Counted from the stretch's first letter, positions 4,130 to 62,924 are shown. The stretch: 64,000 bases of DNA from Candidatus Latescibacterota bacterium (GCA_965243025.1 CBDETY010000003.1:1312001-1376000); one strand, 5' to 3'. A program made the numbers and translations. Notes: generated by a model not told the origin, from the letters alone.

Positions 4130-4133
<4 letters not shown>
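3402..4133 (-). CDS. M48/YgjP-like zinc metallopeptidase associated with type I R-M
   Basis: RWGSC and YVVVHELVH (HExxH) motifs; overlaps the hsdR stop by 4 nt. Confidence 0.9.
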
Positions 4134-7140
<3,007 letters not shown>

Positions 7141-7144
<4 letters not shown>

Positions 7145-8305
7145 GCAGCCTTGATGTCGGGGGCGACACGGAGTTCGCCGGTGAGGAGGACGGACATAAG
7201 GGCAGACTTAGCGACCTGCACTTGATCGATATACGCCTGTTTCCTCTGGAGGACTTCGTCCAGAGACGATAGGATCGTGGAAATCTCGGTTTGCTCTGAC
7301 AAGGAAGGCACAGGGATCGGGATGCTATTGAGGTCAGCCTGATTGAGTTTCGATCGTGTCGCCGCGTTGATGAATGGGCGAACATCCCTGTGCACCAAGG
7401 AGTAGTAGAACCATGAATTGTTGAATCCGTCCTTCGTGCGTAGGACATGCGCATGGTTGTTCACCCAACACTTCCCGTCGACCATATATGCGATGGGTCG
7501 AGTTCGGTACTCATCAAAGTAACCACCGTCCTCAGCCATCAGGATGAGTGGTTCATCAAAGATCCAATCCGACACGTGGTCAACAACACCGTTCGCACCG
7601 TAGTAGGGATACGGCCCTCTCATGCTCTCCCGCTGGCTCTTGTTGAGGGGCTTTCTCCTGCGGTCAAGAACTTCAAAAACCTCCTGAACTAACTTGACCT
7701 CCCACACCTCTGGAATTTCTCCGATCTCCGTCTGCTTGAACCGCGTGTGCCGGCCCGGCAGGCCCCGCGTGAGCAGCTCCTGCATCAGGCCCCGCTTGAC
7801 GACCTGCACTTGGTCGATGACCGCCTGGGTCTTCTCGATAGCGTCGTCCACCGAGGAGAGGATGGCGGCAATCTTCCGCTGCTCCGCCGGAGAGGGAAGC
7901 GGAAGTTTCAACCCACAAAGATCAGTCTTGTTCACTGCAGCGAATGTGCTGCCCTGGGAAACGCGGACAAGGCCAGACACCATCCTCCGGAGTGCATGCC
8001 ACAAGAAGGTAGATTCGACGCCGGTCGCGGTTATTGCGGACAACCCTCTTCCAATACAAATCCGCGTGTCCGCCAAGTTCAGAGCTCCAACCGGTGCTCG
8101 AACACTCAAGAGGATGTCCCCTAGCTGAGCCTCCTTCTGCGGCTTACTGCAGTATTTTACCGGTTGCGGGGTATGAGCACCGAACTCCGCATTTCCTTGG
8201 ATAAAGGGAGGTCCATCTCCGTCTTCGTTTACGGTGCTCGACGGAGGTGACTGGCCCATGTTGACCGTGGCAACGTCACCTAGACGAACCGTTTCCCAGT
8301 CAAGG

Positions 8306-8313
<8 letters not shown>
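7141..8313 (-). CDS. hsdS: Type I R-M specificity subunit S
   Basis: Two variable TRDs separated by conserved LPLPSPAEQRKIAAILSSVD and IPVPSLSEQTEISTILSSLD helices; GEIPEVWEV central motif; lies between hsdM and hsdR. Confidence 0.95.
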
Positions 8314-10141
<1,828 letters not shown>

Positions 10142-13034: not shown

Positions 13035-13070
13035 CCCCTGTCGGCTTCGTGCCGGCAGGGGGTTTTTGTT
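13035..13070 (+). terminator. Intrinsic terminator
   Basis: CCCCTGTCGGC-TTCGT-GCCGGCAGGGG stem-loop followed by TTTTTGTT. Confidence 0.8.
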
Positions 13071-13084
13071 GGTGTTCACCGAGC
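13067..13084. promoter_or_regulatory. Operator-like palindrome, copy 3, upstream of radC
   Basis: TGTTGGTG-TT-CACCGAGC. Confidence 0.5.
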
Positions 13085-13137
13085 GAAGACGGACGAAGTC
13101 ATCACCCCCCGACAGAACAGTACCAGAAAGGACCCCC

Positions 13138-13575
13138 ATGAAACTCGAAGTCGTAGAACGCAAGGTGCGGCAGATCTGGCAGGACGTATGCTCGGAGCCG
13201 CTCACCAGTCCCGACGAGGTGCTCGCCTACCTGGATACCCTCGACATAGCCTCAGCCGACAGGGAGGTATTCATCGTCCTCCACCTCGACACGCGCAATC
13301 GCGTAGTCGCACATGAGACGACCTCCATCGGCAGTCAGAACGCTTCCCTTGTCCATCCCCGAGAGGTGTTCAAGGCAGCGATCCTCAAGGGAGCAACCAG
13401 CATCATTCTGGCGCACAATCACCCCTCCGGGGATCCGGCGCCCTCCAAGGAAGACATCGATCTCACCCACCGTCTTGCCGAGGCCGGCGGCCTGATGGGG
13501 ATTCAGGTGCTCGATCATGTCGTCGTCGCTCCTCCTGGCGAAAGCGTGTCCATGAAGGAGCTCGGGATCGTATAG
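13138..13575 (+). CDS. radC: RadC-like JAB-domain protein (short form typical of mobile elements)
   Basis: REVFIVLHLD, VHPREVFK, AHNHPSGDPAPSKEDI, VLDHVVV. Confidence 0.92.
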   Translation: MKLEVVERKVRQIWQDVCSEPLTSPDEVLAYLDTLDIASADREVFIVLHLDTRNRVVAHETTSIGSQNASLVHPREVFKAAILKGATSIILAHNHPSGDPAPSKEDIDLTHRLAEAGGLMGIQVLDHVVVAPPGESVSMKELGIV

Positions 13576-13617: not shown

Positions 13618-14610
13618 ATGAAACTTTTTAAACGATTCCTGGGCCGCTGGTCCAAAGCCGGCAGGGGGCTCGTCCCGGAAGGGCCGGGAAGGAACGACCG
13701 GAAAGGTCTGTCCCTGATCGAGCTGTTCGCCAGGTTCCCCGACGACGCGGCCGCGGAACGCTGGTTCGAGGAAACCCGGTGGAGCAAGCAGATCCACTGC
13801 CCCCACTGCGGCTGTTACGGCATGATATCGGAATGTCCCGACCGCAAATCCATGCCCTACTGGTGCGGGGACTGCCGAAAGCGATTCAGCGTTCGCACCG
13901 GAACGGTGCTGTCCCACTCCAAGGTCCCCCTGCAGAAATGGGTGATCGCCATCTACCTGCACCTGTCCAGCCTCAAGGGCGTGTCCAGCCTGAAGCTGCA
14001 CCGGGACCTCCAGGTAACGCATGCAACGGCCTGGTTCATGGGCCACCGGATACGCGAAGCCTGGTCGGACCAGGAGAAGCTCTCAAGCAGGAGAGGCGAG
14101 ATCGACCAGGCCTATTTTGGCGGAAAGGAGGCCAACAAGCACGCCGACAAGAGACTGCGGGAACGGTGGATGGAGGGAAAAACCATCGTCGTCGGGATGA
14201 AGGACAGGAAAACCGGCAAGGTCGCCGCCAGCGTGGTTCCTGCCGAAACGGCGGACATTCTGAGGGCATTTGCCCGGAAGCACCTGAGAGCAAACGGCAC
14301 CCTGTACAGCGACGGGGCCAGTGCCTTGAAGGATTTCAAGTGGCCGGGAAAATCCGAGTTCGTCATCCACTCGAAAGGCCAGTTCTCTACCGATGGGTCC
14401 CACACCAACGGCATCGAAAGCTTCTGGTCCATGATCAAGCGAGCCTACAAGGGGACCTATCACAAAATGTCCCCGAAGCACCTGCAGCGCTACGTCGACG
14501 AGTTCGTCGGAAGGCACAACATCCGCGACAAGGACACTCTTGAGCAGATGGAAGACCTGGTTGCCCGGATGGTGGGGAAACGGCTGCTGTACCGGGATCT
14601 GGTTAAATAG
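13618..14610 (+). CDS. IS1595-family transposase (Zn ribbon plus ISXO2-type DDE)
   Basis: CPHC...CGDC zinc ribbon; EIDQAYFGG, YSDG, HTNGIESFW, YH-MS-KHLQRYVDEF. Confidence 0.93.
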   Translation: MKLFKRFLGRWSKAGRGLVPEGPGRNDRKGLSLIELFARFPDDAAAERWFEETRWSKQIHCPHCGCYGMISECPDRKSMPYWCGDCRKRFSVRTGTVLSHSKVPLQKWVIAIYLHLSSLKGVSSLKLHRDLQVTHATAWFMGHRIREAWSDQEKLSSRRGEIDQAYFGGKEANKHADKRLRERWMEGKTIVVGMKDRKTGKVAASVVPAETADILRAFARKHLRANGTLYSDGASALKDFKWPGKSEFVIHSKGQFSTDGSHTNGIESFWSMIKRAYKGTYHKMSPKHLQRYVDEFVGRHNIRDKDTLEQMEDLVARMVGKRLLYRDLVK

Positions 14611-15886: not shown

Positions 15887-16128
15887 CCCTCCTCTCCTTG
15901 TCGGGCTCGGTTTCCAAGCCAAATCGTCCGAAATGTCCATTTTCCACCCCCAATTTCCATAAAAAAACCGCCGAAATGGACCTTATTTTCACCGGTTTAT
16001 CACTCATGGGGGAGTTATATTATTGACCCGGTCTTTTCGTGTCGCAGCCGGTTTCCTCGGCGGAATCCCCACGCTTTTCGCAAGTGGGTTGCATCCGCCC
16101 CAGCAACGCACCAAGGGAGATATCTGGG

Positions 16129-18324
16129 ATGAAAAAGCATTCGGTGTTCCACATGGCCTTGTTGTTGGCCGGCGTCCTGATGACGCAGGACAGTATTGCC
16201 CAGAAGATCCCCCCTTTACCCGAAGGCACCCTTGCCCGCCTGGGCAAAGGGGGAATCAGCTCGGGCGACCGAGGGCTGGCCTGGTCCCCCGACGGCACGC
16301 GGCTGGCGGTGGCCGGCATAGGCGTCTGGTTGTACAACGCCCGCACCCTGTCCGAAATCGCCTGGCTCAGAGGCGATGGGGACCCTGGCCTCTCGTCGGT
16401 GTCGTTCTCCCCGGATGGTCAGACCCTGGCCAGTAGCAGTTCGGACGGGACGGTGCGGTTGTGGGAGGTGGAGACCGGGCAGGAAAAGGCCGTCCTCGAA
16501 GGCCATTCGGGTCCGGTCTACTCGGTGTCGTTCTCCCCGGATGGGTCGTTGCTGGCCAGTGGCAGTGAGGACCAGACGGTGCGGCTGTGGGAGGTGGAGA
16601 CCGGGCAGGAACAGGCGGTCCTCCAAGGCCATACGGGAAGGGTCTACTCGGTGTCGTTTTCGCCGGATGGTCAGATGTTGGCCAGTGGCAGTAGGGACGA
16701 GACGGTGCGGTTGTGGGAGGTGGAGACCGGGCAGGAACAGGCGGTCCTCCAAGGCCATGCGGGGAGCGTCTCCTCGGTGTCGTTTTCCCCGGATGGTCAG
16801 ACCCTGGCCAGTGGCGGTTGGGACGAAACGGTGCGGTTGTGGGAGGTGGAGACGGGGCAGGAACAGGCCGTCCACCAGCGCCATACGGGTGGAGTCTCCT
16901 CGGTGTCGTTCTCCCCGGATGGTCGGACCCTGGCAAGTGGCAGTTGGGACGATACGGTGCGGTTGTGGGATATGGAATCCGGGCAGCAAAGGGCGGTCCT
17001 CCGAGGCCATGCGGGGAGCGTCTCCTCGGTGTCGTTCTCGCCGGATGGTCAGACCCTGGCCAGTGGCGGTAATGACCAGAGGGTGCGGTTGTGGGATGTG
17101 GAGACGGGGCAGGAAAAGGCCGTCCTCCAAGACCATACGGGGATCGTCTACTCGGTGTCGTTCTCCCCGGATGGTCAAACCCTGGCCAGTGGCAGTTACG
17201 ACCAGACGGTGCGGTTGTGGGATGTGGAGACGGGGCAGGAAAAGGCCGTCCTCCAGGGCCATACGAGTGGAGTCTCCTCGGTGTCGTACTCCCCGGACGG
17301 TCAGACGCTGGCCAGTGCCAGTTATGACCAGACGGTGTGGTTGTGGGATGTGGAGACCGGGCAGCAAAGGGCGGTTCTCCAAGGACAGATCCAATCGGTG
17401 TCGTTCTCCCCGGATGGTCAGATGTTGGCCAGTGGCGGTTGGGACGAGACGGTGCGGTTGTGGGATGTGGAATCCGGGCAGCAAAGGGCGGTCCTCCAAG
17501 GACATAGGAGTGAGGTCGAATCGGTGTCGTTCTCCCCGGATGGGCAGACCCTGGCCAGTGGCAGTTGGGACGATACGGGGGTGCGGTTGTGGGATGTGGC
17601 CAGCGGGCAGGAAAAGGCCGTCCTCCAAGGACATACGGCTGGGATCGAATCGGTGTCGTTCTCCCCGGATGGTCAGACCCTGGCCAGTGCCGGTAATGAC
17701 CGGACGGTGCGGTTGTGGGATGTGGAGACCGGGCAGCAAAGGGCGGTCCTCCAAGGCCATACGGGTTTGGTCGAATCGGTGTCGTTCTCCCCGGATGGTC
17801 GGACCCTGGCCAGTGGCGGTTGGGACGATACGGTGCGATTGTGGGATGTGGAGACGGGGCAGGAACAGGCCGTCCTCCAAGGCCATACGCGATTGGTCTA
17901 CTCGGTGTCGTTCTCCCCGGATGGTCAGATTTTGGCCAGTGGCAGTTCGGACGGCACGATTCTGCTGTGGGACATGGCGCCCTATCTCTCCCCCATTACC
18001 GCGGTCGAAACCCTTTCTGCCTCGCTGCCGGCCTCGACGGCGCTGCTGGCCAACTATCCCAACCCCTTCAACCCTGACACCTGGATTCCCTTTCAACTGC
18101 ACGCGCCGGCCCCGGTGCGCCTGAGCATCTACGACGCCCGGGGGGCGCTGGTCCGGGAAATCGATCTGGGTCATCGGGCGGCGGGTCAGTACCTGACCAG
18201 CGCCGGCGCCCTCCGGTGGGATGGCCGCGATCAGCGCGGCCAGCGGGTCGCCAGCGGAGTGTATCTGTATCGGTTGCAGGCCGGCCGGTTCGCCCAGGTG
18301 CGCAGGATGCTCCTTCTCAAATAG
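16129..18324 (+). CDS. Secreted WD40-repeat protein 1 (14 blades) with C-terminal FlgD_ig/T9SS-type sorting domain
   Basis: Signal peptide MKKHSVF...SIA; 13 near-identical GH...SVSFSPDG..LASG..D.TVRLWD repeats plus one N-terminal blade; C-terminal NYPNPFNP...WDGRD...VASGVYLY. Confidence 0.93.
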   Translation: MKKHSVFHMALLLAGVLMTQDSIAQKIPPLPEGTLARLGKGGISSGDRGLAWSPDGTRLAVAGIGVWLYNARTLSEIAWLRGDGDPGLSSVSFSPDGQTLASSSSDGTVRLWEVETGQEKAVLEGHSGPVYSVSFSPDGSLLASGSEDQTVRLWEVETGQEQAVLQGHTGRVYSVSFSPDGQMLASGSRDETVRLWEVETGQEQAVLQGHAGSVSSVSFSPDGQTLASGGWDETVRLWEVETGQEQAVHQRHTGGVSSVSFSPDGRTLASGSWDDTVRLWDMESGQQRAVLRGHAGSVSSVSFSPDGQTLASGGNDQRVRLWDVETGQEKAVLQDHTGIVYSVSFSPDGQTLASGSYDQTVRLWDVETGQEKAVLQGHTSGVSSVSYSPDGQTLASASYDQTVWLWDVETGQQRAVLQGQIQSVSFSPDGQMLASGGWDETVRLWDVESGQQRAVLQGHRSEVESVSFSPDGQTLASGSWDDTGVRLWDVASGQEKAVLQGHTAGIESVSFSPDGQTLASAGNDRTVRLWDVETGQQRAVLQGHTGLVESVSFSPDGRTLASGGWDDTVRLWDVETGQEQAVLQGHTRLVYSVSFSPDGQILASGSSDGTILLWDMAPYLSPITAVETLSASLPASTALLANYPNPFNPDTWIPFQLHAPAPVRLSIYDARGALVREIDLGHRAAGQYLTSAGALRWDGRDQRGQRVASGVYLYRLQAGRFAQVRRMLLLK

Positions 18325-18461
18325 CCTGGCCGGGAGGGATAACGCCCAAAGTGAACCGGCCCCCGGTGTTGAAGGTCCCGGAGGTTTTCCAATTCCTGAG
18401 GCGGGATGACAGGGGAACCTGGCCGTCTTCGGGACCCCACACCCCAAAAGAGGTAGCTCGG
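18325..18461 (+). repeat. Intergenic repeat, homologous to 20652-20784
   Basis: Shared GGTCCCGGAGGTT, GGATGACAGGGGAACC and GAGGTAGCTCGGATG blocks. Confidence 0.85.
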
Positions 18462-20651
18462 ATGAAAAAGCGTTCAGTGTTCCTCATGGCCTGGTTGGCC
18501 GGCGTCCTGATGGCGCAGGAGAGTTTTGCCCAGACGATACCCCCTTTACCCGAAGGCGCCCTCGCCCGCATGGGCAAAGGGAGTATCGGAAAGGGCGACG
18601 GAGGGGTGGCCTGGTCTCCCGACGGCACGCGGCTGGCGGTGGCCAGCATAGGCGGCATCTGGTTGTACAACGCCCGCACCCTGTCCGAATTGGCCCTGCT
18701 CCAAGACCTTGCCTGGTCGGTCCACTCGGTGTCGTTCTCCCCGGATGGTCGGACCCTGGCCAGTGGCAGCAACAGGACAGTGCGGTTGTGGGATGTGGAA
18801 ACCGGGCAAGAAAAGGCCGCCCTCCAAGGACATACGGACAACGTCCGCTCGGTGTCGTTCTCCCCGGATGGCCGGACCCTCGCCAGTGGCGCGGGTGGGG
18901 ACGAGACGATCCGGTTGTGGGATGTGGAGTCCGGGCAGGAAAAGGCGGTCCTCGAAGGCCATGCGGGGGGGATCACCTCGGTGTCGTTCTCCCCGGATAG
19001 CCGGACCCTGGTCAGTGGCAGTTACGACCAGACGGTGCGGTTGTGGGATGTGGAAACGGGGCAGGAAAAGGCGGTCCTCGAAGGCCATACGCAAACGGTC
19101 ACTTCGGTGTCGTTCTCCCGGGATGGTCAGACCCTGGCCAGTGGCAGTTGGGACGAGACGGTGCGGTTGTGGGAGGTGGAGACCGGGCAAGAAAACGCCG
19201 TCCTTGGCCAGAGGTGGGTCTACTCGGTGTCGTTCTCCCCGGATGGTGGGACCCTGGCCAGTGGAAATGGGGACGGGACCATTCGATTGTGGGACGTGGC
19301 CAGCGGCCAGGAACAGGCCGTCCTCCAAGGCCATGCGCAAGCGGTCGCCTGGGCGCGGTTCTCCCCGGATGGTCAAAGCCTGGCCAGTGGCAGTTGGGAC
19401 GAGACGGTGCGGTTGTGGGAGGTGGAAACCGGGCAGCAAACAGCCGTCCTCCAAGACCATTCGGGTTTGGTCAACTCGGTGTCGTTCTCCCCGGATGGTC
19501 AAAGCCTGGCCAGTGGCAGTTGGGACCAGACGGTGCGGTTGTGGGAGGTGGAGACCGGGCGGCTGAAGGCCCACCTCCAAGGCCATACGCATAGGGTCAA
19601 CTCGGTGTCGTTCTCCCCGGATGGCCAGACCCTGGCCAGTGGCAGTGGGGACGAGACGGTGCGATTGTGGGATGTGGCCAGCGGCCAGGAACAGGCCGTC
19701 CTCGAAGGCCATTCGGACAGGATCCATTCGGTGTCCTTTTCGCCGGACGGTCAGACCCTGGCCAGTGGCAGTGATGGCGGGACGGTGTGGTTGTGGGAAA
19801 TGGAGTCAGGGCAAGAACAGGCCGTCCTCGAAGGCCATTCGGACAGGATCCTCTCGGTGTCGTTCTCCCCGAATGGTCGGACTCTGGGCAGTGGCAGTGC
19901 TGACGAGACGGTGCGATTGTGGGATGTGGCCAGCGGCCAGGAACAGGCCGTCCTCCAAGGCCATACGCATTGGGTCAACTCGGTGTCGTTCTCCCCGAAT
20001 GGTCGGACTCTGGGCAGTGGCAGTGCTGACGAGACGGTGCGATTGTGGGATGTGGCCAGCGGCCAGGAACAGGCCGTCCTCCAAGGCCATACGCATTGGG
20101 TCAACTCGGTGTCGTTTTCGCCGGATGGTCAGACCCTGGCCAGTGGCAGTTCGGACGAGACGGTGCGGTTGTGGGATGTGGAGACCGGGCAAGAAAAGGC
20201 CACCCGCTACCATACGTGGGGTGTCAACTCGGTGTCGTTTTCGCCGGATGGGCAGATTTTGGCCAGTGGCAGTGGGGACGGCACGATTCTGCTGTGGGAC
20301 ATGGCGCCCTACGTCCCCCCCATTACCGCGGTCGAAACCCTTTCTGCCTCGCTGCCGGCCTCGACGGCGCTGCTGGCCAACTATCCCAACCCCTTCAACC
20401 CCGACACCTGGATTCCCTTTCAACTGCTCGAGCCGGCCCCGGTGCGCCTGAGCATCTACGACGCCCGGGGGGCGCTGGTCCGGGAAATCGATGTGGGTCA
20501 TCGGGCGGCGGGTCAGTACCTGACCAGCGCCGGCGCCCTCCGGTGGGACGGCCGCGATCAGCGCGGCCAGCGGGTCGCCAGCGGAGTGTATCTGTATCGG
20601 TTGCAGGCCGGCCGGTTCGCCCAGGTGCGCAGGATGCTCCTTCTCAAATAG
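18462..20651 (+). CDS. Secreted WD40-repeat protein 2 (14 blades) with FlgD_ig/T9SS-type domain
   Basis: MKKRSVFLMAW signal peptide; 13+1 WD40 repeats; C-terminus nearly identical to gene 1. Confidence 0.93.
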   Translation: MKKRSVFLMAWLAGVLMAQESFAQTIPPLPEGALARMGKGSIGKGDGGVAWSPDGTRLAVASIGGIWLYNARTLSELALLQDLAWSVHSVSFSPDGRTLASGSNRTVRLWDVETGQEKAALQGHTDNVRSVSFSPDGRTLASGAGGDETIRLWDVESGQEKAVLEGHAGGITSVSFSPDSRTLVSGSYDQTVRLWDVETGQEKAVLEGHTQTVTSVSFSRDGQTLASGSWDETVRLWEVETGQENAVLGQRWVYSVSFSPDGGTLASGNGDGTIRLWDVASGQEQAVLQGHAQAVAWARFSPDGQSLASGSWDETVRLWEVETGQQTAVLQDHSGLVNSVSFSPDGQSLASGSWDQTVRLWEVETGRLKAHLQGHTHRVNSVSFSPDGQTLASGSGDETVRLWDVASGQEQAVLEGHSDRIHSVSFSPDGQTLASGSDGGTVWLWEMESGQEQAVLEGHSDRILSVSFSPNGRTLGSGSADETVRLWDVASGQEQAVLQGHTHWVNSVSFSPNGRTLGSGSADETVRLWDVASGQEQAVLQGHTHWVNSVSFSPDGQTLASGSSDETVRLWDVETGQEKATRYHTWGVNSVSFSPDGQILASGSGDGTILLWDMAPYVPPITAVETLSASLPASTALLANYPNPFNPDTWIPFQLLEPAPVRLSIYDARGALVREIDVGHRAAGQYLTSAGALRWDGRDQRGQRVASGVYLYRLQAGRFAQVRRMLLLK
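19853..20116 (+). repeat. Exact tandem duplication with 126-bp period (one WD40 unit)
   Basis: 19853-19990 is identical to 19979-20116. Confidence 0.9.
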
Positions 20652-20784
20652 CTGGCCGGGGGATAACTCCCAAAGCGAACCCGGCCCCCGGTTTGCAGGT
20701 CCCGGAGGTTATTCAATTCCCGAGGCGGATGACAGGGGAACCCCGGCCGCCTTCGGGACGCCACACCCAAAGGAGGTAGCTCGG
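20652..20784 (+). repeat. Intergenic repeat, copy 2
   Basis: Homologous to 18325-18461. Confidence 0.85.
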
Positions 20785-22992
20785 ATGAAAAAGCGTTCAG
20801 TGTTCCTCATGGCCTGGTTGTTGGCCGGCGCCCTGATGGCGCAGGAGAGTTTTGCCCAGACGATACCCCCCTTACCCGAAGGCGCCCTTGCCCGCCTGGG
20901 CAAAGGGGGTATCGGAGAGGGCGACCGAGGGGTGGCCTGGTCCCCCGACGGCACGCGGCTGGCGGTGGCCGGCGTGGGCATCTGGTTGTACGACGCCCGC
21001 ACTCTGTCCGAAGTCGCCTGGCTCAGAGGCGATGCGGACTATTTCCTCTCATCGGTGTCGTTCTCCCCGGATGGTCAGACTCTGGCCGGTGGCAGTGAGG
21101 ACAACACGGTCCGGTTGTGGGATGTGGAGACCGGGCAGGAACAGGCCGTCCTCCAAGGCCATTGGAGTTCGGTCACCTCGGTGTCGTTCTCCCCGGATGG
21201 TCAGATGTTGGCCAGTGGCAGTTGGGACGAGACGGTGCGGTTGTGGGAGGTGGAGACGGGGCAGGAAAAGGCCGTCCTCGAAGGCCATACGCAAGCGGTC
21301 ACCTCGGTGTCGTTCTCCTGGGATGGTCAGACCCTGGCCAGTGGCAGTTGGGACGAGACGGTGCGGTTGTGGGAGGTGGAGACGGGGCAGGAACAGGCCG
21401 TCCTCGAAGGCCATACGGGTCCGGTCTCCTCGGTGTCGTTCTCCCCGCATGGGCAGACCCTGGCCAGTGGCAGCTATTGGGACTCGTCCGTGCGGTTGTG
21501 GGATGCGGAGACCGGGCAGGAACAGGCCACCCTCCTCCATCCGGAGGGGGTCACCGCGGTGTCGTTCGACCGGGAGGGTTGGACCCTTGCCGGTGCCGGT
21601 ACTGGGGAGGGGATCATTCTAGTGTGGGAGGTGGAGACCGGCCAGGAACTGGCGTTCCTCACAGGCCCTGAGTGGGTGGATGTCACCTCGGTGTCGTTCT
21701 CCCCGGACGGTCAGACCTTGGCCAGTGGCGGTCTGGACCAGAGGGTGCGGGTGTGGGATCTGGAGACCGGGCAGGAAATGGCCGTCCTCCAAGACCATAC
21801 CGATGGGGTCAACTCGGTGTCGTTCTCCCCGGAGGGTCAAACCCTGGCCAGCGGCAACGGGGACGGGACGGTGCGGGTGTGGGATGTGGCCAACCAGGAA
21901 CAGGCCGTCCTTGAAGAGTTATACGGGGGGTGGGTCAGTTCGGTGTCGTTCTCCCCGGATGGGCAGACCCTGGCCAGCAGCCAAGGGGACCGGAGGGTGG
22001 TCCTGTTGTGGGAAGTGGAACCCTGGCAGGAAAAGGCCACTCTCTGTTGCCAGCAGTGGGAGGTCATTTCGGTGTCGTTTTCGCCGGATGGCTCGCTGCT
22101 GGCCAGTGGCCATATAGACGGAACCGTCCAATTGTGGGACATGGCCAGCGGCCAGGAACAGGCCGTCTTCGAAGGCCATACGGACTGGGTCAACTCAGTG
22201 TCGTTTTCGCCGGATGGGTCGCAGCTGGCCAGTGGCAGTCGGGACGAGACGGTGCGGTTGTGGGATGTGGAAACCGGGCAGGAACAGGCCGTCCTCCAAG
22301 GCCATACGGATTGGGTCCGGTCGGTGTCGTTTTCGCCGGATGGTCAGACCCTGGCCAGTGGCAGCAGGGATGGGGGGACCATTCGATTATGGGACGTGGC
22401 CAGCGGCCAGGGACAGGCCGTCTTCGAAGGCCATACGGATGGGGTCAACGCGGTGTCGTTTTCGCCGGATGGTCGGACCCTGGCCAGTGGCAGTGATGAC
22501 TACACGGTCCGGTTGTGGGATGTGGAGACCGGGCAGGAACAGGCCGTCCTCCAAGGCCATTCGGGGTGGGTCTCCTCGGTGTCGTTCTCCCCGGATGGTC
22601 AGATTTTGGCCAGTGGCAGTGGGGACGGCACGGTCTTGCTGTGGGACACGACGCGGTTTGTCCCCGACTCGTCCGTTCCTACTGCGGTCGCCGCAGCCGA
22701 GAGCAGCGCACCGGCGGCCAGCCGCCTGGAGCCGAATCACCCCAACCCCTTCAACGGACGCACCCGCATCTCCTATCGTCTGGCCGCATCCGGCCGGGTT
22801 CGGCTGGAAATCTGCAATGCCCTGGGACAGTCGGTGCGCACCTTGGTGGATCAGGTCCAGCCCGCCGGCGCGTATCGGGTCGTCTGGGACGCCCGCGATC
22901 AGCAGGGCGCCACGGTGGCCGCCGGAGTCTATCTGACGCGCCTGTCATTTCCGGGCGGACGGCAGACGCGCCGGCTGCTCTACCTAAAGTAG
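20785..22992 (+). CDS. Secreted WD40-repeat protein 3 (14 blades) with a divergent FlgD_ig/T9SS-type domain
   Basis: Signal peptide; 13+1 WD40 repeats; NHPNPFN...WDARD...VAAGVYL...LLYLK. Confidence 0.93.
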   Translation: MKKRSVFLMAWLLAGALMAQESFAQTIPPLPEGALARLGKGGIGEGDRGVAWSPDGTRLAVAGVGIWLYDARTLSEVAWLRGDADYFLSSVSFSPDGQTLAGGSEDNTVRLWDVETGQEQAVLQGHWSSVTSVSFSPDGQMLASGSWDETVRLWEVETGQEKAVLEGHTQAVTSVSFSWDGQTLASGSWDETVRLWEVETGQEQAVLEGHTGPVSSVSFSPHGQTLASGSYWDSSVRLWDAETGQEQATLLHPEGVTAVSFDREGWTLAGAGTGEGIILVWEVETGQELAFLTGPEWVDVTSVSFSPDGQTLASGGLDQRVRVWDLETGQEMAVLQDHTDGVNSVSFSPEGQTLASGNGDGTVRVWDVANQEQAVLEELYGGWVSSVSFSPDGQTLASSQGDRRVVLLWEVEPWQEKATLCCQQWEVISVSFSPDGSLLASGHIDGTVQLWDMASGQEQAVFEGHTDWVNSVSFSPDGSQLASGSRDETVRLWDVETGQEQAVLQGHTDWVRSVSFSPDGQTLASGSRDGGTIRLWDVASGQGQAVFEGHTDGVNAVSFSPDGRTLASGSDDYTVRLWDVETGQEQAVLQGHSGWVSSVSFSPDGQILASGSGDGTVLLWDTTRFVPDSSVPTAVAAAESSAPAASRLEPNHPNPFNGRTRISYRLAASGRVRLEICNALGQSVRTLVDQVQPAGAYRVVWDARDQQGATVAAGVYLTRLSFPGGRQTRRLLYLK

Positions 22993-23393
22993 ACCACCGG
23001 TACTCTTCAAGATCGAATCGACCACGTCTTTCCGGAAAGGACGAATCGTTGGGCAGGAAAGTAGATCACCCTGCTGCGATAAAATGCCGGAACGCCGATA
23101 TCAATTACCTCTTCTCTAACGAAGCCCTTTTCCAAGAAAAGAAGAAGGATCAGATGGCAGCTTGGGCGGACCAACTCATCATCGCTGAGCGGGCTTTACG
23201 GCTTCCAGATACGCATTTTCTGGACGAGCACGGTTTCCGCCACATTCTTTCACGATTTCCAGGTTCCGGATCCATTCCGGACAGGGATGATGAAGTCGAG
23301 GTTGAGGGAGTCTCAGCGAAAGACCCGCCCCGAAAGGTGCGTTGTGGCGACTTGGGATCTTGTTGCCATGAAGGGATGAAGATCTCCTCGTCC

Positions 23394-23881: not shown

Positions 23882-24307
23882 ATGGCGACGAAAGCGAGTT
23901 ATTTGCCGCTGATTCTTCTGATGGTCAGTTGCACCGATGCTCCCTTGTCCTACTCTGAAAGGGGGGAGTTGTCGGAGAAGATAGTCGGGCAATGGATATC
24001 CGAAGGCGGCTCCAGCGGGTACGAGTTCACCGACAGGGGCCGGTTCACGTTCCATGTCTGGAACAACGACGGTCCCACGGAATTCGTAGCCGGTCAGTGG
24101 TGGGTGTCCACTGAGAAGATCAAGATCCAAGCTGAAGTGCGGTGTCTCCTGAAGGGTGAAGACTATTGGGAATACGCTCTTACCGGGGGAAACAGGGGGA
24201 TCGAGTTTGACAGCTCGAAGTTCAAGGTCGGGGAAGCCGTTGCGAATTACGAGCGCAAGTCATTCGAAACACCGGCCCCCCCCGCTTGTGGGCTTGCGAA
24301 TCCCTGA
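23882..24307 (+). CDS. Putative lipoprotein (beta-rich, possibly lipocalin-like)
   Basis: AGGAGG RBS; lipobox LMVSC; IVGQW motif. Confidence 0.75.
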   Translation: MATKASYLPLILLMVSCTDAPLSYSERGELSEKIVGQWISEGGSSGYEFTDRGRFTFHVWNNDGPTEFVAGQWWVSTEKIKIQAEVRCLLKGEDYWEYALTGGNRGIEFDSSKFKVGEAVANYERKSFETPAPPACGLANP

Positions 24308-25316: not shown

Positions 25317-26321
25317 ATGAGTAATGGTAAAAGCATCTCGTTAATCGAATTGTTCAGCATGTTTCCAGATGACGCAACCGCAGAAAAATGGTTCGAAGAA
25401 GACAGATGGGGGAAGACCGTAGACGGCCTGCCCGAATCCATATACTGCCCGCGCTGCGGCCGCTCCGACAGGATCTCGGAATGCCCCGGCCGCAAGCCCA
25501 TGCCCTACTGGTGCGGCGGCTGTCGAAAGCGCTTCAGCGTGCGCACGGAAGGGGGAATGTCCCACTCCAAGATCCCCTTGCGGAAATGGGCCATCGGCGT
25601 CCACCTGTACGAATCCAGACCGAAGGGAATCAGCGCCAGGCAGCTTGCGAGCGACCTCGACCTAGCGTATTCGTCGGCCTTGTTCATGCTGCACCGCCTC
25701 CGGGAAGCCTGGCCGGTTCCCGAACCGCTGCGCAGCAGGATGGCCGAGATAGACCAAGCCTATTTCGCCGGAGACGATGGGAACAGGCACGGCAACAAGA
25801 AGTTTCACCGGAAATGGAAGTATGGCACTACCACCGTGAACGGAGTGCGCTGCCGGGAAACCGGCAACGTGGGCCCCAAGGTGGTCCCTGACGTGACCCG
25901 CGAAACCGTGTTCCCCTGCGCAGAGGAACACGTACGCCCGGAGGGCGCCCTTTTCAGCGACAATGCCCCGACCTTTCGCGATGGTTTCGAATGGCCGGGA
26001 AGACACGAAACCGTCAACCACAAGGATGAATACGTCAGAGGAGAGGTCCATACGAACGGCATTGAATCGTTCTGGGCCAAGGCGAAGCGAACGATATACG
26101 GGACCCACCACCATGTGTCTCCCAAGTATTTTCCCCGGTACCTCAACGAGATCACAGGCAAGCACAACATCCGCAACCTGGACCCCGAGGAGCGGATAAG
26201 GTATCTGACGGCGCGGATGATGAGGAAACGGCTGACCTACCGGGATCTGCTGGCGACGGAGGTTCCTCCGACTCCCTACACTCATCACCGGTCGAAGGAA
26301 CGGGGGAAACTGTTCGAATAG
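25317..26321 (+). CDS. IS1595-family transposase, copy 2 (diverged)
   Basis: CPRC...CGGC; EIDQAYFAG, FSDN, HTNGIESFW. Confidence 0.92.
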   Translation: MSNGKSISLIELFSMFPDDATAEKWFEEDRWGKTVDGLPESIYCPRCGRSDRISECPGRKPMPYWCGGCRKRFSVRTEGGMSHSKIPLRKWAIGVHLYESRPKGISARQLASDLDLAYSSALFMLHRLREAWPVPEPLRSRMAEIDQAYFAGDDGNRHGNKKFHRKWKYGTTTVNGVRCRETGNVGPKVVPDVTRETVFPCAEEHVRPEGALFSDNAPTFRDGFEWPGRHETVNHKDEYVRGEVHTNGIESFWAKAKRTIYGTHHHVSPKYFPRYLNEITGKHNIRNLDPEERIRYLTARMMRKRLTYRDLLATEVPPTPYTHHRSKERGKLFE

Positions 26322-28547: not shown

Positions 28548-30152
28548 TCAGCCCGGCAGCTCGATGACCTGACCCTGCGAGGCCAGAATCCGCTGCAGCT
28601 CCGGGACCGGTATCGCGCGGGGGGCCACCTCGTGCCGAAGGACGAGGTGAGCGGCCACCCCGGCCGCCTGTCCGAGCGCCATCCAGGTCGGCTCCAGGCG
28701 AATTGAGGAGTAGGCGACGTGGGTGGTCGATGCGGCCACCGGAACGATGAGGCCGTCGGTCTTCCGGGGCAGCATGATCCGGTAGGGGATCTGGTAGGGA
28801 GCTTCCGCTTCGAGCATTCCGATGTATCCCTCCAGCACCGCTGCGTCTCCGGGGCGCCGCTTGTGGCAGGGAAAGCTGTCGATCGGGAACTCTCCCACGG
28901 CGATGCTGTCGGCATGCTCGCGCGACCCCCCGCTGACCCGGGGACCGGTGATGTCGAGCTCCGTCAACGTGTACTCACCCACCAGCCGGCGCGCTTCGCG
29001 GACGTACAGCTGAAAGGGGAAGTGCCCGTTGTCGGCGAACTCGTCGAGCGGCAGGTGGTACTGGTTGGCCAGCTCTCGGTGCCCGGCGGGGATTTCCCCG
29101 TCGTTCTGCAGGAACCACAGGAGGCCGAGGGTCAGGTTGCGGTGGCGTTCGCGGATGCGCTGACGGGTGTCCTCGTCCCCTTCGACGTAGCCGCGGTTCT
29201 CCTCGGGGAATGGGAACGCGAGGGGCCGAGGGTTGATGTTGACGTCGGTTTTGCGATTCGGGATGTCGCTGACCGAAAGGGCGCGGACCAGGGTGTCGAA
29301 ATGGGCGGGGTTGTACCCGCGGTCCGGCTTGGGGTGCCTGGGGCCGGCCAGGCGTCCGGCGGCGAGGTCGTCGAAATAGCCGAGGTATTCCCGGCGGTCG
29401 TACCCGGGAGGCGGCTGGACGAGACGGAAGGAGTTCTCCGCCTCCGTGGTCAGGCAGAGGCGGTAGGTGTAGGCCGGAAGGGCCGCGTCCCCGGCGCCGG
29501 TGGTTCCCGGCAGGAACCGGCGGGTCTGATAGTCGAAGTAAACGACCCCGGCATGCGGCTCCCCGTGCTCGTCGCGGGACTCCCGGCCGACGCGGAACTC
29601 CGCTCCCGCCGCGGCGTACAGGTCCCCCTCGTACGTGGCGTCGATGAAAACGCCCCCCTCGAGTCGCCGCACCTCGGCGGTGCTGCGATCGGCTGCCTCG
29701 ATGGCGGTAACCGCGCCCTCCTCGACATGGACCTCGAGCAGCCGCAAACCGCACAGCAGGGCGACGTTCTCCCCGCAGTTTGCCAGCATCTCGGAGAAAA
29801 CCGTTTCCGCCACGGAGGGCTCGCTGCGGTACCCGTCCCGGCAGAGCGCGACGTTCTCCGAGTCGGGTCCGTACAGGTCGGTGTAGTGGGTGAGGACCCG
29901 GTCGGTGAACTCGCGGAAGAGCCCGGCGATGGCGGCCCGGTTCTCGATGTCGCTCTTCCCCAGGCCGCTGGCCGCCATGCCCCCGATGTGCCGGTGGTAC
30001 TCGACCAGGGCGACCCGGCGACCCAGGCGGGCGGCGGCTACCGTGGCGGCGATTCCTCCCGGGGTGGCGCCGACAACGGCGACGTCGAACTTCAGGGGAA
30101 CGGCTGCTCCCGCTTCGGCGGCGTTGCCGGGGCGGCCCGAAGAAGCGGTCAT
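28548..30152 (-). CDS. FAD-dependent oxidoreductase (FAD_oxidored family)
   Basis: DVAVVGATPGGIAA, FIDATYEGDL, YVREARRL, YQIPYR, SSIRLEPTWM. Confidence 0.9.
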   Translation of the reverse strand: MTASSGRPGNAAEAGAAVPLKFDVAVVGATPGGIAATVAAARLGRRVALVEYHRHIGGMAASGLGKSDIENRAAIAGLFREFTDRVLTHYTDLYGPDSENVALCRDGYRSEPSVAETVFSEMLANCGENVALLCGLRLLEVHVEEGAVTAIEAADRSTAEVRRLEGGVFIDATYEGDLYAAAGAEFRVGRESRDEHGEPHAGVVYFDYQTRRFLPGTTGAGDAALPAYTYRLCLTTEAENSFRLVQPPPGYDRREYLGYFDDLAAGRLAGPRHPKPDRGYNPAHFDTLVRALSVSDIPNRKTDVNINPRPLAFPFPEENRGYVEGDEDTRQRIRERHRNLTLGLLWFLQNDGEIPAGHRELANQYHLPLDEFADNGHFPFQLYVREARRLVGEYTLTELDITGPRVSGGSREHADSIAVGEFPIDSFPCHKRRPGDAAVLEGYIGMLEAEAPYQIPYRIMLPRKTDGLIVPVAASTTHVAYSSIRLEPTWMALGQAAGVAAHLVLRHEVAPRAIPVPELQRILASQGQVIELPG

Positions 30153-30158
30153 CGCCGG

Positions 30159-30947
30159 TTACCCCCCGCCTCTCTCGATCCGCTCGATGAACCGGGTGCA
30201 GGCGCGAGCCACTTCGCCGGGACGTTCGATGTTGAGATAGTGGGAGGCGCCGGCGACCCAGACCAGCTCAATGTTTTCCCTGTCCGGGATGCGGAGCTCG
30301 TCGAGTCCGGGCCGCTTGCGGCCGCGGTCCCCATACAGCTCGAGGACCGGGACCCCGGTGCCTGCGAGGAATTCGTACCCGTCCCACTTCTTCCAGCAGG
30401 TGCGGAATTCAGCGACCTGTTCCGGGCTCCAGCGCTCGAAGACACGCCGGCGGGTCTCGTCCTTGCGGCTGATCAGCGACGGCGTCAGGGTGTCGAAGAT
30501 GCGGCCTGCGAAGGCGTCCTCCACCACCTCGTGGCTGGTCCAGCCCTCGATGGAGATCACCCCCCTGGCGATTTCCGGGCGTACCCGGGCCAGCTGCATG
30601 GCGATCATGCCGCCGATGCTGTGGCCCCCCACGAAAAGTGGAGAGGCGAGACCGAGGTCGGAGGCGGCGGTCAGCACGTCCTCTGCGAACAGCTCGATCG
30701 AGGCGTCTTGCGGGGGAGGCCAGCTTCCTCCGTGACCGCGCAGTTCCACGACGACCAGCTGCATCCTCGCGTCGAGCCGTTCGACGATATCCCTGCATCC
30801 GGAGCTGTCGTCAAAGCTTCCGGGAATCAGGATCAGGGTCGAGCCCGGTCCCGGCCGGTGCAGGCAGGAAAGGCGCCCCCACTCCATGGGGATGTTCCGC
30901 CGCGTGAAAGCGGGGCCGAGTTCGTGGTCCGGTGCGGAGAGCGTCAT
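30159..30947 (-). CDS. Alpha/beta-fold hydrolase
   Basis: LRGHGGS, nucleophile elbow GHSIGG, GASH; this is the C-terminal part of track ORF 30159-32528. Confidence 0.88.
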   Translation of the reverse strand: MTLSAPDHELGPAFTRRNIPMEWGRLSCLHRPGPGSTLILIPGSFDDSSGCRDIVERLDARMQLVVVELRGHGGSWPPPQDASIELFAEDVLTAASDLGLASPLFVGGHSIGGMIAMQLARVRPEIARGVISIEGWTSHEVVEDAFAGRIFDTLTPSLISRKDETRRRVFERWSPEQVAEFRTCWKKWDGYEFLAGTGVPVLELYGDRGRKRPGLDELRIPDRENIELVWVAGASHYLNIERPGEVARACTRFIERIERGGG

Positions 30948-31334
30948 GGAGGCGTTGGATTTGCTGTTGAGCGGGCCCGGGGGGCGAACTCGGGGGAACC
31001 ATCCCCCGGGAATGGCCACCAACCCGGGCCAATGTGGGGGTGGCCGGGATTTTTCCGGGTGATGCGAGAGGATAGGAAGCTTGACATACCCCGGCCAGCG
31101 GGTGAGACTGACCGCATTAACGACGCCGGAACAACCGGGCGTTACGAGCATCGTCCACGCCCGGACCGGAAGGCGGCAAGGGTCGCGGCCATCTTGCCCG
31201 GGGTGGAGGGCCCTCCTTCGAGGCAGGGTCGGAAAGTGTTTCGGCAAAGGGCGGGGAGTCATTGTCGCCCGGTCTCCCCTTCCCCCGGCTTTCGCCGGCA
31301 TCGGGCAATCGGCCGGCCTGGAATGGAAAGGATC

Positions 31335-53239: not shown

Positions 53240-53404
53240 CTTACCCAGGGGCATCGAGTACCCTTTTCCCGGCTCAGCGAGGGGTTTGCTCTTGCTGCCA
53301 TCCCGCGGCGTTCCATGCGCCGCAATACTCCCCAGACAGCTTCCCCGATACTTGGTGGCCTTGCCCGGGTCGGCATACTACCCAGACTCGTTCCGGAACA
53401 GCAA

Positions 53405-53938: not shown

Positions 53939-54154
53939 ACTTACCCGTTTCCGGGATCCGCCTGTCCCCGAATGTGACAGCAACAGGGAGAATTTCCGGA
54001 GGTCGAATCGTGACCGCGCCGGGAAAACAACCCCGTTTTCGCCGAATCTGTCCGTTCACTGACCCTACTGCCCCCAGCGGGAACGCGCTGGAGTTCCGCT
54101 GTGCTGCATTTCGGAGCAGGGTGCGCGAATCGCCCCTTCCCCAAGTGGTGAGGT

Positions 54155-62907: not shown

Positions 62908-62924
62908 CCCCGCCTCCGGCGTGT

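Follow-up and report, generated by a model that had tools for sequence, protein, structure and literature searches.

A tandem array of three putatively exported WD40 double-propeller genes with diversified top-face residues in a Candidatus Latescibacterota genome

Results

Three tandem genes with one common layout

The window analyzed here, a 64,000-nucleotide stretch from Candidatus Latescibacterota (GCA_965243025.1; CBDETY010000003.1:1312001-1376000), carries three genes in tandem on its plus strand at 16129-22992, which we call A, B, and C (Table 1). An initial annotation made from the sequence had proposed three secreted WD40 genes of 14 blades each at this locus, and both the coordinates, which are exact, and the blade number hold. 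All three genes have the same layout: a putative signal peptide, a degenerate blade, and 13 units of ~126 bp, followed by a linker and, at the C terminus, a sorting domain of T9SS type. Their frames are uninterrupted over 729-735 codons. Cutting at each unit start gives 39 units in total (13 in each of the three genes), to which the degenerate N-terminal blade adds the 14th blade of each gene; the tandem units, of about 40 residues, carry the GH...WD signature and match the WD40 profile (Table 1). The spacer between A and B, taken together with the sorting domain of A and the N terminus of B, belongs to a junction unit of ~2327 bp that is found again at the B/C junction (repeat families D7, D8, and D12); the sequences downstream of A and of B are 92% identical, and those upstream of B and of C are 91% identical.

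Table 1. Positions of the features discussed, counted from the first nucleotide of the window (arrays with a 126-bp period from Tandem Repeats Finder)
Feature	Position	Strand	Remarks
IS1595-family (ISXO2-like) transposase gene	13618-14610	+	PF12762, E 2.7e-33; upstream of array
Gene A	16129-18324	+	731 aa; WD40 (PF00400) in 13 stretches, E 3.9e-172; TIGR04183, 23.2 bits
Gene A putative signal peptide	about 16129-16203	+	
Gene A N-terminal strand and degenerate blade 1	up to 16395	+	
Gene A, 13 repeat units	16396-18027	+	final unit extends into linker
126-bp-period array	16396-17953		12.4 copies, 84% matches, score 1960
Gene A linker	about 17992-18033	+	low-confidence
Gene A T9SS-type sorting domain	about 18034-18321	+	
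A/B spacer	18325-18461	+	part of junction unit
Gene B	18462-20651	+	729 aa, layout as gene A; WD40 in 13 stretches, E 4.7e-160; TIGR04183, 25.4 bits
126-bp-period array	18719-20280		12.5 copies, 80% matches, score 1695
Gene B perfect tandem copy (units 11 and 12)	19853-20116	+	264 bp
B/C spacer	20652-20784	+	second copy of junction unit
Gene C	20785-22992	+	735 aa, layout as gene A, units more degenerate; WD40 in 12 stretches, E 2e-146; TIGR04183, 23.9 bits
126-bp-period array	21052-22634		12.5 copies, 74% matches, score 1415
IS1595-family transposase gene, second	25317-26321	+	PF12762, E 1.7e-29; downstream of array
PorW/SprE-like match	55537-60564		134 bits (cut-off 250)

The three proteins look exported. 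Inspected by eye, their N termini resemble signal peptides: they begin with MKK, have a hydrophobic core of ~14 residues, and end in AQ, a pattern repeated at the N termini of their relatives. Each C terminus matches the T9SS type A sorting domain TIGR04183 at a score barely above the cut-off of 23 bits, which suggests that export would lead to the cell surface. No gene of the T9SS machinery (PorU/PorV, SprA/Sov, GldKLMN) was identified within the 64-kb window, where the PorW/SprE-like match, below its cut-off, is the sole hint of this system; Kamke et al. 2014 (PMC3909097) detected none of the T9SS structural genes in Poribacteria.

Variation is concentrated on one predicted face of a double propeller

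The AlphaFold2 model of the gene A product (pLDDT 87.8, pTM 0.72) has an N-terminal helix at residues 2-22, 56 strands (14 x 4) at residues 34-615, and a beta domain at residues 637-729. In this predicted structure the blades are four-stranded and closed into seven-bladed rings. The count of 56 includes a conserved N-terminal strand before blade 1, blade 14 having three strands, and it is probably this N-terminal strand that supplies the fourth, as read off the strand count and not off contacts. The closest solved relative by sequence is 2ymu, a 14-blade highly repetitive WD40 protein from Nostoc (E 3.6e-158), which is also the top fold match (E 4.2e-57); tandem double propellers come next by fold.

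Across the 39 aligned units most scaffold columns have an entropy below 1 bit, and peaks are found at the residues before and after D (3.03 and 2.45 bits), at the three residues following GH (2.39, 2.89, and 3.23 bits), and at the residue following the conserved V (3.09 bits). This is the distribution that had been described from the sequence, and every string quoted after GH, like the variable residue before D, is present in the units. The six most variable columns fall into two regions, one being the b-c turn and the other the d-a loop or the beginning of strand a. The variable residues, x-D-x of the b-c turn and x-V-x of the d-a loop, form the top face of the propeller, to which Paoletti et al. 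2007 (PMC1805685) assign these positions.

The repeats had been called highly similar, a description that applies unevenly: among the 12 internal units of each gene, mean pairwise amino acid identity declines from 0.75 (A) through 0.69 (B) to 0.63 (C), which puts A above and B and C below the internal identity of 0.7 used for highly repetitive WD40 proteins by Hu et al. 2017 (PMC5587647), whose exact procedure differs from our pairwise mean. Small indels occur in 9/39 units, and the DNA of the units differs by 10-35%.

Selection on the top-face codons

Nonsynonymous change exceeds synonymous change at the variable codons, with omega about 3-4. In 18 disjoint nearest-neighbor unit pairs, pN at the six most variable codons is 0.420, while the pooled pS is 0.176 (ratio 2.39; bootstrap 95% interval 1.83-3.22; 0/2000 bootstraps at or below 1), the scaffold having a pN/pS of 0.53, and the eight closest nonidentical pairs give a six-codon pN of 0.40 against a pS of 0.13. 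A likelihood test with a shared synonymous rate, which presumes a single tree, equal synonymous rates, and units without internal recombination, finds beta > alpha at p < 0.05 in 7/42 codons (omega 1.7-8.9) and purifying selection in 21/42; the four codons selected in advance on the basis of the HET-E study reach omega 3.9 (likelihood ratio test, 132), and the scaffold is under purifying selection at omega about 0.45 (0.44 in this test). The signal is weaker with site-specific synonymous rates: beta > alpha at p < 0.05 in 3/42 codons (aligned columns 43, 45, and 46), beta is also larger than alpha at columns 18, 21, and 47 (p = 0.13, 0.10, and 0.15), and column 44 has alpha > beta. The parallel drawn in the initial annotation to the positively selected positions of fungal HET-E is supported: the same x-V-x and x-D-x codons outpace synonymous sites.

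Repeats form one pool within genes of mosaic age

Units with the same index in different genes are no closer to each other than to other units (0.808 vs. 0.808, 0.789 vs. 0.777, and 0.784 vs. 0.768), so that all units belong to a single pool in which a shared position implies no orthology. Their pS, 0.24-0.28, is not below that of nonmatching units, and the flanks, with estimates based on just 66-93 synonymous sites, have very unequal values: 0.10-0.14 among the N termini, 0.03 between the sorting domains of A and B, and 0.56-0.58 between either of these and that of C. The sorting domains of A and B are 97.7% identical in DNA. Gene C carries a different subtype, which shares 45% amino acid identity with the domain of A and 67% with its counterpart in a database protein (P0083), and the domain of A is 81% identical to one in a protein from another source. 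Scaffold identity between A and C is 0.80, against 0.53-0.74 to five other family proteins.

Units 11 and 12 of gene B are 100% identical, with 138 nt matching exactly at lag 126. No exact direct repeat in 16000-23100 is longer than this copy, which marks a recent event, either conversion or duplication, after which the number of blades was still 14. Other pairs of units have no exact match longer than 64 nt, implying that exchange is infrequent on a recent time scale. A tree built from the scaffold only is star-like (0/32 inner branches strongly supported); gene labels cluster weakly on it (14 changes, where shuffled labels average 17.6 and 2.8% of shuffles come out as low) and index labels marginally (26 against 28.5; 5.1% as low), so a single burst of amplification with independent divergence explains much of the pattern. 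The very unequal ages of the flanks and the perfect 264-bp tandem copy point to recombination between repeats and paralogues. The route by homologous recombination that had been proposed for this locus is indicated by these two observations together with the common unit pool.

A homogeneous member of a known family

We confirmed 191 relatives for this exported WD40 family. Of 76 loci, 30 are titled Candidatus Poribacteria and contain nearly all matches to the whole N terminus, and at least eight of these loci carry adjacent genes of this kind, two or more in number. Many proteins of Candidatus Poribacteria and of a few other phyla have the same architecture, and in these sponge-associated Poribacteria Kamke et al. 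2014 (PMC3909097) noted “eukaryote-like” WD40 proteins that end in a Por-type sorting domain; the suggestion of a new bacterial counterpart to the fungal receptors is not supported. The passages of that paper on the exported poribacterial WD40 proteins contain no selection or recombination analysis.

The window genes have the Poribacteria-type layout, with a putative signal peptide, an LPEGA-x-ARLGKG strand (L30, P31, E32, G33, A36, R37, and G41 invariant in 8/8 sequences), a degenerate first blade, and ~13 more blades, and they share with that family its frequent tandem arrangement; a TIGR04183-type tail is optional in the family. Its consensus, from 26 sequences, has 14 units, and Pereira and Lupas 2022 (PMC9218822) describe a preference for 7 or 14 blades in repetitive WD40 proteins, whose propellers are continuously amplified from single blades. 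The “fixed” number of 14 given in the initial annotation is the usual one and no peculiarity of the locus. Variable columns coincide in 4/4 repetitive relatives examined. The best relatives reach just 52-54% full-length identity, and there is no close orthologue among the 120 protein-collection matches listed (best identity at most 62%). The window genome is not that of a typical poribacterium: unlike the poribacterial loci, with a G+C of 39-50%, it has about 62%, and the nearest named proteins to the window's UvrB are from Latescibacterota and Gemmatimonadota (75-77%). Nucleotide identity at 126-nt spacing is 0.78-0.89 here and mostly 0.35-0.6 in the family relatives, placing the window repeats at the most homogeneous extreme of the Poribacteria-type family: the locus adds a new, particularly uniform member to a family that was already known.

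Relation to other diversified repeat proteins

With WRAP of Nostoc punctiforme (Npun_R6612, PDB 2ymu) the window proteins share 14 near-identical blades in two seven-bladed propellers, a conserved scaffold, and diverse hotspots; Hu et al. 2017 (PMC5587647) describe homogeneous scaffolds and diverse hotspot sites for prokaryotic highly repetitive WD40 proteins in general. WRAP-type propellers are described as sensor domains at the C terminus of STAND ATPases, which are cytoplasmic, whereas here the propellers stand between a putative signal peptide and a sorting domain; a STAND (NACHT or NB-ARC) NTPase is absent from the three proteins, whose residues 1-89 are signal peptide and blade 1. In the fungal HET-E/HET-D/NWD proteins units form a pool within and between paralogues, as they probably do here, and in both cases the selected codons are pairs flanking V in the d-a loop and D in the b-c turn. 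Combinations of four residues are distinct in 35 of 36 units here and in 55 of 69 in the fungus (PMC1805685). In contrast to the fungal receptors, the window proteins are predicted to be exported rather than cytoplasmic and have no HET or NACHT domain and no N-terminal effector domain; unit identity is higher in the fungus, and RIP is inapplicable to the window genes. Strains of the fungus have been shown to differ in repeat number, and a recognition phenotype has been shown as well (Paoletti et al. 2007, PMC1805685).

Targets of diversity-generating retroelements (DGRs) likewise have localized hypervariability in the ligand-binding surface of an exported protein, but the window has no template/variable repeat pair, and the variation here recurs at the same fixed structural positions throughout the 39 units. 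No match to a reverse transcriptase family was found in the 53 window ORFs scanned, as had been noted earlier, and the repeat analysis found no template-like repeat outside the three genes, which argues against a DGR target. The accompanying statement that no recombinase is visible is not entirely accurate, given the two IS1595-family transposase genes that flank the array. These are 51% identical in amino acids and so are not copies of a single composite transposon; they lie outside the WD40 genes, as context, and are not candidates for repeat shuffling.

Discussion

We consider it reasonably probable that the three genes encode exported double-propeller binding paralogues with a shared scaffold, recombining repeats, and distinct top faces maintained by selection. 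Each protein would leave the cytoplasm by a Sec-type signal peptide, carry two seven-bladed WD40 propellers, and be placed on the cell surface or released through its T9SS-type sorting domain. The blades of all three genes would derive from a recent amplification, hence their common scaffold, and would keep exchanging by homologous recombination, through gene conversion and unequal crossing-over among repeats and paralogues, while selection holds the ligand-binding top-face residues different between blades. The outcome would be six distinct propeller faces on one scaffold.

A rather less likely account, though still a possible one, is that a blade was amplified once to 14, that the gene was copied soon after, and that each blade specialized a single time, leaving ordinary binding proteins of stable specificity. 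The top-face excess of nonsynonymous change is equally expected from a freshly amplified propeller differentiating once toward a fixed asymmetric ligand, and the star-like scaffold tree and the shortness of all exact matches but one agree with such a history. So do the diverged repeats of most family relatives, the published general pattern of continuous single-blade amplification with peaks at 7 and 14 (PMC9218822), and the interpretation by Hu et al. (PMC5587647) of hotspot diversity in young WD40 proteins as adaptation to partners. Against it, one flavor of scaffold is present in all three genes despite sorting domains of different lineages, the perfect copy in gene B records a recent event, and the ages of the gene segments are incompatible with one another (a sorting-domain pS of 0.03 against 0.57), which requires at least some recombination after duplication.

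That the top-face loops are simply unconstrained is improbable. On this explanation omega would exceed 1 from post hoc codon choice and from synonymous change depressed by codon bias and homogenization; the high GC3 (about 0.76-0.79), with which codon bias may indeed have lowered synonymous change, the few codons individually significant under site-specific rates, and the variability of the same columns in WD40 repeats generally are in its favor. Homogenization, however, would reduce both classes of change equally, the four HET-E codons were set in advance, and the excess recurs in independent close pairs, including the closest. Very improbable, finally, is a mis-assembled repetitive region or a set of decaying pseudogenes: the copy in gene B is a stretch prone to copy-number mis-assembly and none of the three proteins (0/3) has an exact match in the protein collection, not even a self-hit, but the frames are open with one 14-blade layout, the scaffold is under purifying selection, the units differ enough for unique read placement, the UvrB cluster of the window lies on one 6.78 Mb contig, pointing to a contiguous assembly, and other, independent genomes also have genes of this kind in tandem arrays.

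The interpretation of the locus in the initial annotation is, as a whole, partly supported; its term “diversifying receptor locus” is too strong, as it implies diversification still under way in the population and a function in recognition. If the three paralogues do exchange blades by recombination, as we infer, the array would allow binding surfaces to vary by means of repeats; such surfaces may serve in binding proteins of a host, of phage, or of neighboring cells, and a receptor repertoire is a plausible reading of their sequences.

Architecture and Predicted Fold of the Putatively Exported WD40 Proteins

The three tandem genes A, B, and C share one architecture: a signal-peptide-like N terminus (an MKK start and ~14 hydrophobic residues, ending in AQ), a short conserved motif, a degenerate WD40 blade, 13 repeat units, every one of which opens with a shared eight-residue motif, a linker, and a C-terminal domain of ~95 residues. 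Tandem Repeats Finder detects 126-bp arrays of 12.4, 12.5, and 12.5 copies in A, B, and C (84, 80, and 74% matches), and Pfam recognizes 13, 13, and 12 WD40 stretches, respectively. For the T9SS type A sorting domain (NCBIfam: TIGR04183), which has a cut-off of 23 bits, the tails score 23.2, 25.4, and 23.9. The coordinates, counts, and sequence strings that the initial annotation had given for 16129-22992 proved correct when compared with the ORFs, Tandem Repeats Finder, Pfam, and the aligned units.

An AlphaFold2 model of A, built from an alignment of 26 family members (pLDDT 87.8, pTM 0.72), has 56 strands in residues 34-615: a single strand precedes blade 1, blades 1-13 consist of four each, and blade 14 has three. 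From this strand count alone, not from contacts, we infer that the conserved N-terminal strand would be the closing strand of blade 14. The closest solved structure to A is 2ymu, a 14-blade highly repetitive WD40 protein from Nostoc (sequence E 3.6e-158, fold E 4.2e-57), and the next fold matches of the model are eukaryotic tandem double propellers. The tail of A is modeled as a separate beta domain (residues 637-729).

Features of the window that carry the array, its surroundings, and further ORFs and repeats
Feature	Coordinates	Strand	Remarks
YgjP-like metallopeptidase gene	3402-4133	-	
HsdR	4130-7144	-	Complete type I restriction-modification system, upstream of array
HsdS	7141-8313	-	Complete type I restriction-modification system
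HsdM	8306-10141	-	Complete type I restriction-modification system
Inverted-repeat arms	10510-10549/27037-27076		40 nt, A+T-rich, 83% complementary
RadC-like gene	13066-13575		Upstream of array
IS1595-family transposase gene	13618-14610		Upstream of array
Gene A, WD40 protein, 731 aa	16129-18324	+	ORF in tandem array
Gene B, WD40 protein, 729 aa	18462-20651	+	ORF in tandem array
Gene C, WD40 protein, 735 aa	20785-22992	+	ORF in tandem array
Signal peptide and first blade of A, B, C	16129-16395, 18462-18725, 20785-21051
Direct repeats	23385-23524/24571-24738		~140 nt (91 nt at 95%, 51 nt at 96%), ~1.2 kb apart
Small lipoprotein-like ORF	23882-24307
Second IS1595-family transposase gene	25317-26321		Downstream of array
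1191-aa ORF	28719-32294	+	Zinc-dependent alcohol dehydrogenase domain in last ~300 residues
Six ORFs, 207-860 aa	41876-48444, 51443-55327, 62442-63875		Coding-like third-position G+C, no Pfam/NCBIfam match
1675-aa TPR protein	55537-60564	+	Weak TonB_C match

Variation Is Concentrated on the Predicted Top Face

Alignment of all 39 units reveals six entropy peaks: the positions before (3.03 bits) and after (2.45 bits) the D of the x-D-x motif, the three positions that follow GH (2.39, 2.89, and 3.23 bits), and the position after the conserved V (3.09 bits). Variable sites had been expected to cluster on the structure, and in the model of A the six peak columns do map to the b-c turn and to the d-a loop or the start of strand a. 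A second tier of moderately variable columns in the 39 units lies in the outer strand d and the bottom loops. In HET-E, a fungal NLR-type receptor with WD40 sensor repeats, positive selection is reported for two codon pairs on the top face, where proteins bind: one pair flanks a conserved V in the d-a loop, the other a conserved D in the b-c turn (Paoletti et al. 2007, PMC1805685). Both pairs are among the variable columns of A, B, and C. The four residues form distinct combinations in 35 of the 36 internal units, and tryptophan occupies 10% of these positions against 3% elsewhere.

Top-Face Codons Carry an Excess of Amino-Acid Change

We measured selection by pairwise counts and by a site test based on pruning likelihood, for which the 36 internal units were placed on an HKY+G tree. 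Across 18 disjoint nearest-neighbor unit pairs, pN at the six peak codons is 0.420 and pooled pS 0.176, a ratio of 2.39 (bootstrap 95% interval 1.83-3.22; 0/2,000 replicates at or below 1), against a scaffold pN/pS of 0.53. The 8 closest nonidentical pairs give similar six-codon values (pN 0.40, pS 0.13).

Under a shared synonymous rate (0.30), which assumes a single tree, equal synonymous rates, and no within-unit recombination, the 42 codons divide into 7 that are positive at p < 0.05 (columns 18, 21, 39, 43, 44, 45, and 47; omega 1.7-8.9), 21 negative, and 14 undecided. Omega in this test is 3.9 for the six-codon class (LRT 168), likewise 3.9 for the four codons chosen in advance from Paoletti et al. 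(LRT 132), and 0.44 for the remaining codons. With a site-specific synonymous rate, a test of low power, beta exceeds alpha at p < 0.05 for columns 43, 45, and 46 only; beta is 2.5-5.8 times alpha at columns 18, 21, and 47 (p 0.10-0.15), and alpha exceeds beta at column 44. Codon bias (GC3 0.76-0.79 in genes B and C) is a further caveat to these tests. The per-site dN/dS analysis called for by the initial annotation thus returns the nonsynonymous excess at x-D-x and x-V-x over a constrained scaffold, more weakly when synonymous rates are site-specific (3/42 codons). We conclude that the top-face residues change faster than silent sites, an excess that fits selection for difference between blades.

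In the signal peptide and first blade, pN (0.12-0.18) is about equal to pS (0.10-0.14), so that constraint here is far weaker than on the repeat scaffold (omega 0.44).

Segments of the Array Differ in Age

Units at the same index in different genes are no closer than other units (nucleotide identity 0.808 vs. 0.808 for A/B, 0.789 vs. 0.777 for A/C, and 0.784 vs. 0.768 for B/C), and their pS of 0.24-0.28 equals that of arbitrary unit pairs (0.20-0.30). Positional orthology of the units is supported neither by these identities nor by the tree, with one possible pair, A07/C07 (the seventh units of A and C; SH-aLRT 91). Outside the units, pS is 0.10-0.14 among the three N termini, and in the linker and sorting domain it is 0.03 for A/B, 0.58 for A/C, and 0.56 for B/C. 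The sorting domain of A is 81% identical to that of P0026, a database protein from another source, and that of C is 67% identical to that of a second database protein, P0083, against 45% between A and C. Scaffold identity is nevertheless as high between A and C units (0.80) as between A and B units (0.79), and higher than to five other family proteins (0.53-0.74).

The tail of A, the spacer, and the N terminus of B recur at the B/C junction with a period of ~2327 bp, the pattern that unequal crossing-over between arrays would give, and units 11 and 12 of B are identical, forming a perfect tandem copy of 264 bp. Four observations speak for exchange being infrequent: beyond the identical B pair, no exact match between units is longer than 64 nt; the scaffold-only tree is star-like, with none of its 32 inner branches strongly supported; gene labels cluster only weakly on this tree (14 changes vs. 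17.6 on average after shuffling, with 2.8% of shuffles as low); and index labels are marginal (26 vs. 28.5; 5.1% as low). Our reading is that the units probably derive from a fairly recent common pool and have undergone several recombination events since, with no rapid ongoing scrambling. The repeat shuffling proposed initially is thus retained as probable as far as several recombination events go, given the segment ages and the identity of the two B units, but not as rapid ongoing scrambling, which the short exact matches and star-like tree speak against.

A diversity-generating retroelement or other targeted mutagenesis is rejected, as a scan of 53 window ORFs turned up no reverse transcriptase. 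The same ORFs yielded no site-specific recombinase, but the view that no recombinase is visible needs qualifying for the two IS1595-family transposase genes that flank the array, which are poor candidates for shuffling the repeats.

A Putatively Exported Double-Propeller Family Common in Poribacteria

We searched one genome per species with the N-terminal module, confirming 191 relatives and keeping 76 loci. Candidatus Poribacteria account for 30 of the 76, with nearly all of the whole-N-terminus matches (38-53% identity). Latescibacterota and Gemmatimonadota contribute a single matching locus each, and matches in Planctomycetota, Actinomycetota, Chloroflexota, and cyanobacteria cover the generic WD40 part only. 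Relatives have in common the signal peptide, the N-terminal motif, and ~14 blades, and at least eight poribacterial loci have two to five such genes side by side. Their C-terminal ends are of four kinds: nothing, dockerin-like repeats, a sorting domain, or both of these modules. In many relatives (loci L002, L005, L006, L011, L018, and L022), tandem dockerin-like calcium-binding repeats replace or precede the sorting domain. This arrangement suggests interchangeable anchoring modules in the family.

Repeat homogeneity was scored as nucleotide identity at a spacing of 126 nt between units, over the best stretch of 378 nt. It is 0.89, 0.88, and 0.78 in A, B, and C; most relatives lie at 0.35-0.6 and a few at 0.78-0.84. 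The x-D-x and post-GH positions are again the most variable in all four repetitive relatives examined.

A whole-protein homology search, limited to 8,000 scored candidates, retrieves mostly cytoplasmic NACHT/NB-ARC WD40 proteins of ~1,200 aa, the family N-terminal or tail motif occurring in 22 of the 120 matches listed. Searching with the N-terminal region yields 212 proteins at E <= 1e-5 among 2,079 candidates; none of the 120 matches listed exceeds 62% identity, so that this search offers no close orthologues for strain comparison. A, B, and C are themselves absent from the collection of 15 billion proteins (exact look-up 0/3, no self-matches in homology searches), and the window UvrB is present there with relatives at 94-98% identity; gene calls may have been missed, or the collection may lack some proteins of the source contig. 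In those UvrB relatives the WD40 genes may likewise be absent, strongly diverged, or uncalled.

The genome that carries the window differs from a typical poribacterium in G+C (~62% vs. 39-50% in poribacterial loci) and in its UvrB, whose nearest named proteins are from Latescibacterota and Gemmatimonadota (75-77%). The cluster that includes the UvrB of the window was seen on one 6.78 Mb contig. This, the intact reading frames of all three genes, and the purifying selection that acts on the scaffold argue against an assembly artifact.

Genomic Surroundings

The stretch around the array is mobile-looking. A composite transposon is rejected, since the flanking IS1595-family transposases are only 51% identical. 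A promoter and terminator scan between 15400 and 23600 is uninformative, with no promoter-like sites (1.2 in shuffles) and 5 terminator-like ones (5.9 in shuffles).

The 16.5 kb bracketed by the inverted repeat include the WD40 array, the two IS1595-family transposase genes, and the RadC gene. An extended -10-like TGGTATAA(C/T) lies in each of the inward-facing arms, and the sequences beyond the arms are unrelated; the arms could be paired promoters or element ends. The direct repeats lie downstream of gene C in a stretch without convincing genes, except for the small lipoprotein-like ORF. Further along, the first ~850 residues of the ORF with the alcohol dehydrogenase domain have no Pfam or NCBIfam match. 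The TPR protein scores 134 bits against the T9SS lipoprotein PorW/SprE, below the cut-off of 250, and is the sole hint of T9SS machinery in the window.

Discussion

Of the genomic hallmarks of symbionts of sponges and other animals, WD40 "eukaryote-like" proteins belong to those cited most. They have been reported in sponge-associated Latescibacterota genomes, and WD40 domains are described as highly abundant in poribacterial single-cell genomes, in which T9SS structural genes were reported as not found (Kamke et al. 2014, PMC3909097; Tables S8 and S9 of that paper list the WD40 genes that have signal peptides). The blade numbers of highly repetitive WD40 propellers have maxima at 7 and 14, and new propellers arise continuously by amplification (Pereira and Lupas 2022, PMC9218822). 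Repeats of highly repetitive WD40 proteins are conserved except at predicted hotspot sites (Hu et al. 2017); the terms "signal peptide" and "secret" are absent from the main text of the latter paper (PMC5587647). Among the listings and abstracts that our literature search covered, none describes an analysis of selection, recombination, or exchange between paralogues for exported bacterial WD40 proteins.

The locus adds an unusually homogeneous new member to the exported WD40 double propellers, a family already known, and the counts and site tests indicate that the excess of amino-acid change on its predicted top face is real. As a counterpart of fungal HET-E/HNWD receptors, it probably matches in mode of repeat evolution, its repeats seeming to evolve like those of HET-E/NWD, but not in family membership: A, B, and C lie outside the HET-E/NWD family because they have no NTPase.

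We raise, tentatively and as a possibility we consider rather unlikely, that uncultivated bacteria of the Poribacteria/Latescibacterota/Gemmatimonadota sphere keep such arrays as a variable extracellular recognition repertoire that evolves like fungal NLR sensors and binds changing host, phage, or competitor proteins. Such a repertoire would resemble those sensors in its shared repeat pool, in paralogue exchange, and in having four to six residues of each blade's top face under positive selection, and would differ in being displayed on the cell surface without an NTPase. If true, NLR-type recognition would have a counterpart outside the cell, driven by recombination.

The locus is an unusually clean case: its 39 units share a single scaffold and make up six different top faces, with measurable excess change at predicted contact residues and segments of clearly different ages, and its variable positions are the residues to graft or mutate in binding screens. 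Were strains invariant, it would still be a good natural example of propeller amplification followed by differentiation. Reshuffled or rediversified units in close strains would place the family among the few bacterial surface repertoires that vary by recombination, and would extend the logic of repeat shuffling, as in fungal and bacterial NLR sensors, to the cell exterior.
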